From assembly GCF_001971585.1 (NCBI RefSeq), contig NZ_CP019323.1, positions 400,053 through 424,052 of the forward strand: 24,000 nt of DNA, given 5' to 3'. Under the pieces are notes generated by a model. The model was given only the letters and a program-made list of their open reading frames with translations, did not search any database and was not told where the DNA came from. Shown here piece by piece: positions 2,723 to 5,394 of this stretch (the stretch's first letter is position 1; every line of letters begins with the position of its first letter). Position numbers and translations under genes: made by a program. The DNA is from Companilactobacillus allii (GTDB taxonomy: Bacteria > Bacillota > Bacilli > Lactobacillales > Lactobacillaceae).

Positions 2723-3004
2723 TCATAGTGCCGTTACAAAAGTTAAAATGCCTAAAACAATTCCAGGTAGATTAGCGATTATTACTGGCCAATCCTTTTT
2801 TCTTTTCAATAATCCGTAAGAAACCCACAAAGTGCTGTTCAAGGCGGCACATAACGGCTGTAAAGGGCTGCCTTTACTACCAGCCAAATTATTCATTATT
2901 TGTGGAATATAAGAAACATACATTAGTATCGAGAAGATTGTTGCTAGTCGACTAACATAAAACAACATATTTTTATTTGCTCTTTGAATTTTTGGTTGAT
3001 TCAT
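2723..3004 (-). CDS. SemiSWEET / PQ-loop family small sugar transporter (3 TM)
   Basis: The ATG at 3004 is preceded by GAGGGA. The ORF-track start at 3016 is a TTG four codons upstream. The 93-aa protein has three hydrophobic helices and a PQ motif in YVSYIPQIMNNL. It starts 8 nt after the GH1 stop. Confidence 0.7.
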   Translation of the reverse strand: MNQPKIQRANKNMLFYVSRLATIFSILMYVSYIPQIMNNLAGSKGSPLQPLCAALNSTLWVSYGLLKRKKDWPVIIANLPGIVLGILTFVTAL

Positions 3005-3012
3005 ATTTTCCC

Positions 3013-4485
3013 TCAATATTTCAAATTATCACTAGATAGCATTCTTCCATTAGTATCAATAACACGTTTGTACCATTCAAAAGATTTCTTCTTAGTACGT
3101 TTCATAGTTCCATTACCCTGATCATCTAAATCTACATAAATCATTCCATATCTTTTTGACATTTGACCAGTTGAAGCACTAACTAAGTCAATACATCCCC
3201 AGGGAGTATATCCAATAATATCAGCACCATCAGATATTGCATCTCCAATGGCTTTGATATGGGATCGTAAATAATCAATCCGATAATCATCGTAAATTTT
3301 ACCGTTATCTTCAACTTTGTCCTTAGCACCTAATCCATTTTCAACCACAAAAATAGGCTTTTGATAGCGATCATACAACTCATCCAAAGCAATTCTTAAT
3401 CCAGTTGGATCAATTTGCCAATCCCAATCATTGACCTTCAAAAATGGATTTCTGACACCACCCATCAAATTTCCGGCTACTTGCTCATTAGAAATCCCAG
3501 TAACCTCAACTACAGTCGACATGTAATAACTGATAGAAATGAAATCTACTGGATAATTCTTAATCTGTTGCAAATCAGGTTCCGTGATTTCTAAATCAGA
3601 CATTTCAAAACCATACTTAGAAAACAAACGCTTTGTATATGCTGGATATTGTCCGCGAATTTGGACATCTCCACAGAAATAATTGAAATCTTGATTATTT
3701 TGCAAGTTTGCTAACTGATTCCTTGGATCAGAATTATATGCATAAGAAGTCGCATATAACAGCATACAGCCAACCTTGATTTTTGAATTGAAATGGTGTG
3801 CAATTTCGACCGCCTTAGCACTGGCAACGAATTGGTTATGCCAAGCTTGGAAGACATTTTGCTTGTCATTACCTCCATTACTTGGAACTAATCCTTGACC
3901 CATAACAGGATGCTGCATAGCAGAATTGATCTCATTAAAAGTTAAGAAGTAATGAACCTTATCACCAAATGACTCGATGACTGTCTTGGCATATCTTTCA
4001 AAGAAACCAATCAACTGACGATTCTTCCAGCCTCCGTAGTCCTTAGCCAAAGTTAGGGGCATCTCATAATGAGATAACGTAATCACAGGTTCAATTTTAT
4101 ATTTCAAACATTCCTCAATGATGGCTCCGTAGAACTTCAAACCAGATTGATTAGGTTCTTTTTCATCTCCACGAGGATAAATACGACTCCAAGCAATAGA
4201 AAAGCGATATGATCTAAATCCCATTTCAGCAAACAAAGCGATATCTTCTCGATAATTATGGTAATGATCAATTCCCAAATGATTTGGATAATTATATTTT
4301 TGCTCATCAATTTGCCATTTGAAATCTGGTGATTGAACTACTTCAAATCGTTGCTTTCCTCCGGGAAGTGCATCAGCTATGGACAAACCGCGGCCATCTT
4401 GATTGAAACCACCTTCCAATTGATTAGCAGCCGTAGCTCCTCCCCACATGAACTCTTTAGGAAATTCATAATTACTTTTTTTCAT
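3013..4485 (-). CDS. GH1 6-phospho-beta-glucosidase
   Basis: 490 aa. GH1 motifs are [22 protein letters not shown] (acid/base Glu) and VVENGLG (nucleophile Glu). The phosphate-binding signature of the 6-phospho-specific subgroup is present as [17 protein letters not shown]. There is no signal peptide. Confidence 0.92.
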
Positions 4486-5394
4486 TTATACACTACCTAC
4501 ACTTTTAAATTCTTTGTCACCTATTTCAAATTTTGAAATAGCACCGTATAAATTAGCATTATTATAAAATTTTGAACTGACAATTTTAGGCTTTTCTAAA
4601 GTTTGATCAACAAACTCATTCTCAGACCTTAATTCGTCAAAAGCTTGTTTTATACCTTCCACAACAATTTTTTGACGTGAAATCCCTCCACCAATAACAT
4701 ATTGATCTACATCCAATACTGTTTGCATATTGTGAATTAATAATGCAATACTCCAGCAAAAATCTTTAAATCGAGCTTGAGCAAAAACATCCTTATTTCT
4801 AATTAATTCAAATACTTGTGGACCATCATTTTGATCTACTAAATTATAATGACTAGCAATATCTTGAACTAGCCCTACTGCAGATCCTTTTCCACCCATT
4901 AAATTATCTTTATCAAACTTGCCACAACTCATGAAACTAACTTCACCAGCTTGGCAGTGGCTTCCATAAACTAAGTGATGATTCAAAACTATTCCAGAAC
5001 CTACGCCAGTCCCTAGAACCAACATAACTCCATTATTAATGTCCTCCAATGAACCTTGCCACATTTCAGCTAAAGCAGCAGCCTTAGCATCATTTTCAAC
5101 AAAGATGGGCAACTTTGTATCAAGTGCCTCTCCAAATGAGATGCCATCTAAAAAGGGAAGTGAACCTCCAAAGCTAACCCTTTTGTCTTTAGCATTAACT
5201 TTTCCAGGAACACTAATACCGATACCAGACGCTTGATGGAATTTTTGAATAATTTCATTAAGTCTCTTTAAGAATTCACTTTGCGAAGTCTTGATAGTAT
5301 CTTCAGAATATTTCTTCAAAAGTTGTCCTTGATCGTTGATCAAGGCATATTTTAGTTTGGTTCCACCAATATCAAAGGCTAAATAGGTTTTCAT
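4486..5394 (-). CDS. ROK-family sugar kinase (candidate beta-glucoside kinase, BglK-like)
   Basis: 302 aa with an AGGAG RBS. It has the N-terminal ATPase motif AFDIGGTKLKYALI and the ROK-type LGTGVGSGIV ... GSHCQAGEVSF region. Its stop TAA abuts the GH1 ATG directly (TAAATG). Confidence 0.85.
   Translation of the reverse strand: MKTYLAFDIGGTKLKYALINDQGQLLKKYSEDTIKTSQSEFLKRLNEIIQKFHQASGIGISVPGKVNAKDKRVSFGGSLPFLDGISFGEALDTKLPIFVENDAKAAALAEMWQGSLEDINNGVMLVLGTGVGSGIVLNHHLVYGSHCQAGEVSFMSCGKFDKDNLMGGKGSAVGLVQDIASHYNLVDQNDGPQVFELIRNKDVFAQARFKDFCWSIALLIHNMQTVLDVDQYVIGGGISRQKIVVEGIKQAFDELRSENEFVDQTLEKPKIVSSKFYNNANLYGAISKFEIGDKEFKSVGSV

Follow-up and report, generated by a model that had tools for sequence, protein, structure and literature searches.

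We analyzed a 24,000-nucleotide stretch of the Companilactobacillus allii genome (the window; NZ_CP019323.1, positions 400,053 to 424,052), in which a three-gene operon encodes a ROK-family sugar kinase, a glycoside hydrolase family 1 (GH1) enzyme, and a 93-aa SemiSWEET. The original prediction, made from the window alone, held that the SemiSWEET imports cellobiose, gentiobiose, or aryl-beta-glucosides, which the kinase would trap and GH1 cleave. Our data indicate that the triplet probably belongs, as its downstream arm, to a seven-gene locus that handles rhamnosylated beta-glucosides. They also incline us slightly toward L-rhamnose as the substrate of the SemiSWEET, given the clade to which it belongs, its genomic context, and an operator upstream of one of its relatives. 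Genomes (G), contigs (C), and loci (L) carry our working labels; G000 is the window's own genome, estimated to be 99.9% complete.

The operon is confirmed as a real unit, with the gene order and junctions originally described. All three genes lie on the minus strand: TAAATG joins the stop of the kinase gene (302 aa, 4486..5394) to the start of the GH1 gene (490 aa, 3013..4485), and 8 nt separate the latter from the SemiSWEET open reading frame (ORF; 2723..3004, ATG at 3004 and stop at 2723), which has a GAGGG ribosome-binding-like site just upstream. The operon ends at a bidirectional intrinsic terminator-like hairpin (2662..2697, 16 pairs, -23.0 kcal/mol).

Beyond the triplet first described, an AraC gene and a three-gene operon (together 5515-11563) face ROK-GH1-SemiSWEET to form one conserved seven-gene locus. 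The AraC-family regulator (370 aa, 5515..6627, plus strand) is divergent from ROK and conserved with the locus. The operon, on the minus strand, encodes a GH78 alpha-L-rhamnosidase (938-aa ORF, 8747..11563, start probably a TTG at 11548), a major facilitator superfamily (MFS) transporter (403 aa, 7533..8744), and an HSL-like alpha/beta-hydrolase (287 aa, 6659..7522), which by family match and locus conservation is a putative esterase for glycoside de-acylation. The GH78 protein has Bac_rhamnosid N, concanavalin-like, 6-hairpin, and C domains, all above cut-off, and matches 3W5M with an E-value of 2.9e-117. Upstream of its gene is a cre-like (CcpA) site (11573..11586, minus strand), present in all six aligned upstream regions. 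The AraC and esterase genes converge on a terminator-like hairpin (6625..6661, -19.3 kcal/mol). With this arm included, the locus already has a transporter of the 12-helix class.

Of 41 genomes in the genus, nine carry the seven-gene locus. A search of these 41 genomes identified 10 SemiSWEETs at least 73% identical to that of the window, in 9 genomes, and 9 of the 10 terminate the ROK operon of the same locus while the flanking genes differ. The locus is divided between two contig ends in G021, and in G004 and G425 GH1 is gone and the SemiSWEET directly follows ROK. Among 400 other genomes of the family, six outside the genus encode a GH78 at least 56% identical; each has a related ROK within 8 kb, and the regions we fetched from them contain no SemiSWEET. 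Three g52 genomes have an MFS in the slot after ROK-GH1, and G162 has an esterase there. The arrangement in G348 is ROK-MFS, and in G417 GH78-MFS-esterase-ROK forms a single run. In G024 (L033:12785-13977, L167) the locus MFS is broken into ORFs of 269 and 139 aa by a frameshift or sequencing error, and the SemiSWEET is intact.

We found related ROK matches in 108 of 401 family genomes and hand-picked from these 40 further loci, holding 41 ROK genes. The same-strand runs of 21 contain a rhamnosidase (10), an esterase (7), or an apiosidase-like gene (4); an MFS occurs in 23 runs, an MFS together with such an unblocking enzyme in 20, GH1 in 16, and a phosphotransferase system (PTS) component in 6. 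None of the 41 hand-picked genes has a SemiSWEET in its run. In G333, G292, G184, and G307, MFS-GH78-ROK-GH1 forms a single run whose GH1 is 65-68% identical to that of the window. The proposed PTS-independent logic of a kinase followed by a phospho-glucosidase is supported by the recurrence of this ROK subfamily with MFS and GH1; the SemiSWEET as importer is the weaker part of the original prediction. Within MFS/ROK runs at L316, L323, L329, L346, and L160 we also observed DUF5060-apiosidase-like-DUF5605 proteins (513-527 aa), whose genes are candidates for apiosyl-glucoside utilization in lactobacilli.

The assignment of GH1 as a putative 6-phospho-beta-glucosidase holds. The enzyme carries TFNE (182), VENG (381), and an 11-residue motif at 436, its catalytic glutamate motifs and phosphate-binding loop align to 6WGD and 4IPL, and its closest solved relatives are 6-phospho-beta-glucosidases; its PRK09593 score (623 bits) is slightly below the cut-off of 639. 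The kinase had been described as BglK-type, and BglK (NF042998) is indeed its best NCBIfam match, but at 123.1 bits against a cut-off of 550 it is not an equivalog member. From its neighborhood, it would act on beta-glucosides once these have been unblocked in the cytoplasm.

The 93-aa protein had been called a PQ-loop protein and a SemiSWEET. PF03083 (MtN3_slv) matches at 36.9 bits against a gathering cut-off of 23.7, and no PF04193 (PQ-loop) match was reported at E<=0.01; the two families belong to one clan (PMC5972207). The NCBIfam subfamily model SemiSWEET_2 (NF037968) scores 25.6 bits, below its cut-off of 80. A structure model (predicted local distance difference test score, 87) contains three helices (3-40, 48-66, and 72-92), and P34-Q35, W60, and N78 align with the motif and pocket positions of 4QNC. 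Sequence similarity to solved SemiSWEETs is remote (E 0.055-0.31). The top Foldseek ranks of the model, SWEET 5CTH and SemiSWEET 4RNG, are both non-significant at E 0.6, and a wide fold search returned generic helical bundles without a significant match. Compared with five orthologues, the gene differs at 42-48 third codon positions and 3-8 second positions, showing that it is under purifying selection.

In the 401 family genomes we identified 264 matches to related SemiSWEETs, in 204 genomes (150 of the 264 among the matches listed). In the loci that we fetched, we annotated 146 SemiSWEET ORFs by comparison with our own reference proteins (98 unique, including that of the window), and built a careful tree from 49 of 100 rows, leaving out 51 unlabeled rows at least 75% similar to a kept row. 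The window SemiSWEET falls in a clade of 12 rows with a support of 98/91 (88 in a quick first tree), made up of nine copies of the window locus and one member each from G021:C9, G049, and G506. ROK is beside 9 and GH1 beside 7 of the 12 clade members, with neither beside those of G021:C9, G049, and G506; outside the clade, among 88 unique SemiSWEETs, GH1 is beside one and ROK beside none. The association of the clade with rhamnosidase and rhamnose genes is closer than its association with GH1. GH78 lies within ~6.5 kb of 10 of the 12 members, across a contig break from one, and is absent near one. Each of the 11 genomes that have a clade member encodes GH78, compared with 46 of the 401 in the family, and RhaA is absent from 8 of the 11. 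The G021:C9 member follows an MFS within a GH3-GH78-GH43 locus, and the G506 member is a solitary gene. Elsewhere among the 88 non-clade SemiSWEETs, some with short flanks, one is by GH78, one by a GH106-like gene, and one by GH3 only. None of 80 metagenome SemiSWEET loci (51 at least 8 kb long) has such neighbors, and a metagenome scan for clade members found none, the best reaching 66% among the matches listed. In the RhaA-less genome G190, an MFS-GH3-GH43-GH78-SemiSWEET run (L141:7888-15124) ends in a long-branch SemiSWEET outside the clade, which may have been recruited independently to its rhamnosidase locus.

The G049 member connects the clade to rhamnose catabolism. We compared 18 rha operons hand-picked from 68 RhaA-positive genomes plus G020. 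In 15, one of them with the gene as two ORFs, a related MFS lies between the AraC gene and rhaB; three lack it. We refer to this protein as the rha-operon MFS, a working name that does not equate it with the published RhaY. In G049 the gene order is AraC, SemiSWEET, rhaB, rhaA, rhaD, with GH78 nearby, so that the SemiSWEET fills the rha-operon MFS slot; the genome contains no orthologue of that MFS (best match 30%). A 46-nt repeat, 89% identical, lies upstream of both SemiSWEET and rhaB. Leaving G049 out, we derived an operator motif de novo from the upstream regions of 17 of the compared operons and L164; an in-register site was obtained in 15 of these 18. Its top two scores in the 19-kb G049 locus coincide with the two repeat copies, at 22.2 bits for the one upstream of rhaB and 17.3 bits for the one upstream of the SemiSWEET, compared with an average maximum of 6.4 and a highest score of 11.6 in shuffled controls; sites of at least 17.3 bits occur only three times in 5.07 million positions of G000. 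The half-sites are 21 bp apart, and a 21-bp repeat spacing is reported for AraC-type rha regulators (PMC3870299). The motif also occurs upstream of MFS-GH78-ROK operons in G425 (L131:1810, 24.3) and G004 (L318:9820, 28.4), both without RhaA, where from these sites rhamnose may act as an inducer without being eaten. A 16.5-bit match lies just before GH43 in a GH106-like/GH43/PTS/GH3/SemiSWEET cluster of G008 (L045:2971).

Plant glucosides commonly carry rhamnosyl, apiosyl, or acyl groups on O6, and in rutinosides the glucose O6 is occupied while rhamnose is a 6-deoxy sugar. Such rhamnosyl-glucosides therefore offer no free O6 for phosphorylation by a PTS, and O6-blocked glucosides would account both for PTS-independent uptake and for a kinase step that has to wait until O6 is unblocked. 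In our model, the substrates would be rhamnosylated beta-glucosides such as rutinosides, in which rhamnose is linked alpha-1,6 to glucose (PMC10600125). The MFS would bring in the intact rhamnosyl-glucoside, the esterase would strip acyl groups, and cytoplasmic GH78 would take off rhamnose to expose the glucose O6. ROK would then phosphorylate this position using ATP, and GH1 would split the product into glucose-6-phosphate and aglycone. The SemiSWEET would be a bidirectional L-rhamnose facilitator. Because we did not find rhaA, rhaB, rhaD, or rhaM in G000, flow there would be outward: linkage of the SemiSWEET to a rhamnosidase locus where rhamnose cannot be catabolized implies efflux. Uptake would be possible in rhamnose users such as G049. 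We hold the model as a whole, rhamnose transport included, to be only somewhat more probable than its negation, with substrates and direction read from gene content. A broader version is attractive but more tentative, and we give it somewhat less than even chances: the clade may be a dedicated L-rhamnose channel and a further family of rhamnose transporters, acting as a waste valve for rhamnose strippers and as a permease in a rhamnose user, and may belong to a modular Lactobacillaceae route (an MFS for import, an interchangeable enzyme that unblocks O6, a dedicated ROK, and GH1) for rutinosides, apiosyl-glucosides, and acyl-glucosides.

Several observations weigh against the rhamnose model. 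The clade occurs in three genera only, 10 of its 12 members come from one genus, and its host genomes are kin, leaving about three independent rhamnose-linked contexts rather than eleven. In G506, which lacks RhaA, 530 kb separate the clade member from GH78. Many GH78-positive, RhaA-negative genomes (G249, G348, G417) have no clade SemiSWEET, so such genomes can do without it. The promoters of the window lack the rha operator, and the window AraC is of another type; neither a repeat search nor inspection of the aligned ROK and GH78 upstream regions by eye revealed a clear shared AraC site. In G049, a terminator-like hairpin of its own separates SemiSWEET from rhaB, the SemiSWEET operator could be a duplicated promoter, and the genus contains G049 alone, which leaves the rha-slot case without replication. 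G023 has rhaBAD with neither the rha-operon MFS nor a clade member. GH78 enzymes also cleave alpha-1,2 rhamnosides, where O6 is free. As for the module, 20 of the 41 ROKs lack an adjoining unblocking enzyme, and these counts come from hand-picked loci. Only 7 of 46 close GH1 relatives adjoin a ROK match when compared by coordinates, so GH1 is not specialized to the module, and we rejected a GH1 subfamily always coupled to ROK. Finally, in a quick tree of 34 rows, the MFS that follows ROK-GH1 in g52 groups with glycoside-linked MFSs, not with the rha-operon MFS.

It is mainly this last grouping that sustains the glucoside-import reading of the original prediction, which we now consider unlikely: where g52 has an MFS of the glycoside-linked family, a SemiSWEET could have taken its place. 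ROK-GH1 is closely coupled to 7 of the 12 clade members, a Streptococcus SemiSWEET adjoins GH1 (L111; also PMC5972207), and some SemiSWEETs carry the disaccharide sucrose (PMC5972207). On the other hand, the locus has its own MFS, the clade tracks GH78 and rha genes, and its SemiSWEET survives loss of GH1 in G004 and G425, sister rows that probably reflect a single event, and occurs without ROK and GH1 in G021:C9, G049, and G506, in G049 behind a rha operator. The other related ROKs, 0 of 41 with a SemiSWEET, also speak against it. No PTS EII component lies within the operon, as originally stated, but G000 has 14 full-length cellobiose-type EIIC matches, one of them starting 22 bases left of the window, two EIIBC matches, and 10 GH1 genes, so there is less need for another cellobiose route.

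Somewhat less probable still is a broad monosaccharide valve, passing glucose, xylose, arabinose, and rhamnose alike and recruited to plant-glycoside loci without a preference for rhamnose. The G021:C9 member ends a GH3-GH78-GH43 locus that would free several sugars, distant members lie behind GH3 or GH43 genes (L141, L045, L181), and Q35 and the pocket residues W60 and N78 are identical across 48 relatives, clade and non-clade alike. Such a valve sits poorly with the G049 position in a rha permease slot under a rha operator, and with GH78 as the sole enzyme common to the contexts. The least probable reading makes the SemiSWEET a passenger whose function is unrelated to the locus. Related SemiSWEETs do occur in just over half of the family genomes, mostly without carbohydrate neighbors among the reference set, and the G506 member is solitary; however, overlapping or near-overlapping junctions are maintained in nine genomes despite different flanks, the SemiSWEET is re-coupled directly to ROK after GH1 loss, and rhamnose-linked contexts recur.

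Other genes in and around the window were also noted. The pcp operon (365-2626, plus strand; DUF969-DUF979-pyroglutamyl peptidase) converges on the SemiSWEET terminator and shares it; we take its DUF969 and DUF979 membrane proteins to be probably a pyroglutamate-related transporter. To the left of the window lies a lone cellobiose-family PTS EIIC gene (G000:C1:398703-400031; L229:8701-10041), divergent from DUF969 and without an adjoining GH1; we rejected it as a partner because flanks vary among orthologous loci. On the other side, the minus strand carries a yhf/php-like operon (11769-19176) and fructose-type PTS components with a GH38 mannosidase (mannosylglycerate hydrolase-like) and an RpiR regulator (19436-23998). 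A promoter scan of the window found 15 sites, fewer than the 20 in shuffles. A search for RNA runs listed none, which has no bearing on expression. Elsewhere in the genome (G000:C1:287864-294000; L168), one operon with PTS EIIB/EIIC/EIIA-like genes, a sialate-type acetylesterase, a second ROK, and a divergent GH1 (28%) is a PTS-linked esterase-ROK-GH1 set.

The natural substrates of bacterial SemiSWEETs are described as mostly unknown (PMC5972207), and the rhamnose reading would give one clade a specific and easily tested substrate. The module offers a reason for an ATP-dependent kinase beside phospho-glucosidases in lactobacilli and names candidate importers of flavonoid rutinosides, whose uptake has been called a bottleneck in food fermentation (PMC13298368); if the model is true, released rhamnose would be a cross-feeding substrate. 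We found no report of rhamnose transport by a SemiSWEET or of an MFS-hydrolase-ROK-GH1 module in a literature search that stopped short of supplements and the primary L. plantarum rhamnosidase papers, so that parts may be in print. The accessible portions of PMC5698550, PMC9876838, PMC11911983, PMC8456714, and PMC8660893 deal with PTS routes or rhamnosidase activity and not with this module, which is apparently undescribed in Lactobacillaceae.

The locus is built from known families; what is new is their arrangement and the rhamnose prediction for the SemiSWEET clade. Like the SemiSWEETs 4QNC (L. biflexa) and 4RNG (T. yellowstonii) and those reviewed in PMC5972207, the window protein belongs to MtN3_slv, with three predicted helices, a P-Q motif, and a pocket Trp and Asn; it is distant from them in sequence and below the SemiSWEET_2 cut-off, and the known SemiSWEET substrates are glucose and sucrose. 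The same review (Jia 2018) names, as conjecture, SemiSWEETs adjoining a 6-phospho-beta-glucosidase in a Streptococcus sp. and an alpha-rhamnosidase in L. vaccinostercus; the arguments from operator, displacement, and direction given here do not appear in the available text of that listing. The known rhamnose transporters RhaT (DMT), RhaFGHJ (ABC), and RhaY (MFS) share with the G049 SemiSWEET a position in rha clusters and an AraC operator with 21-bp periodicity, yet are of other protein families, none in the accessible part of PMC3870299 being a SemiSWEET. The window ROK has its family in common with BglK of K. pneumoniae (PDB 4HTL is annotated as a beta-glucoside kinase) and forms a separate subfamily tied to MFS and unblocking hydrolases, for which its context suggests a BglK-like action; BglK and BglA-2 together process aryl-glucoside in vitro (PMC13264166). 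The PTS and phospho-beta-glucosidase route of L. acidophilus (PMC5698550) and C. farciminis (PMC8660893) likewise uses an intracellular GH1 on phosphorylated glucosides, whereas in the window phosphorylation would follow uptake and unblocking and be carried out by an ATP-dependent ROK. Finally, L. plantarum rhaP2B2P1B1, as summarized in PMC13298368, resembles the window locus in pairing GH78 with a permease, in catabolite repression, and in intracellular processing, and the window locus additionally has the esterase, ROK, GH1, and the SemiSWEET.

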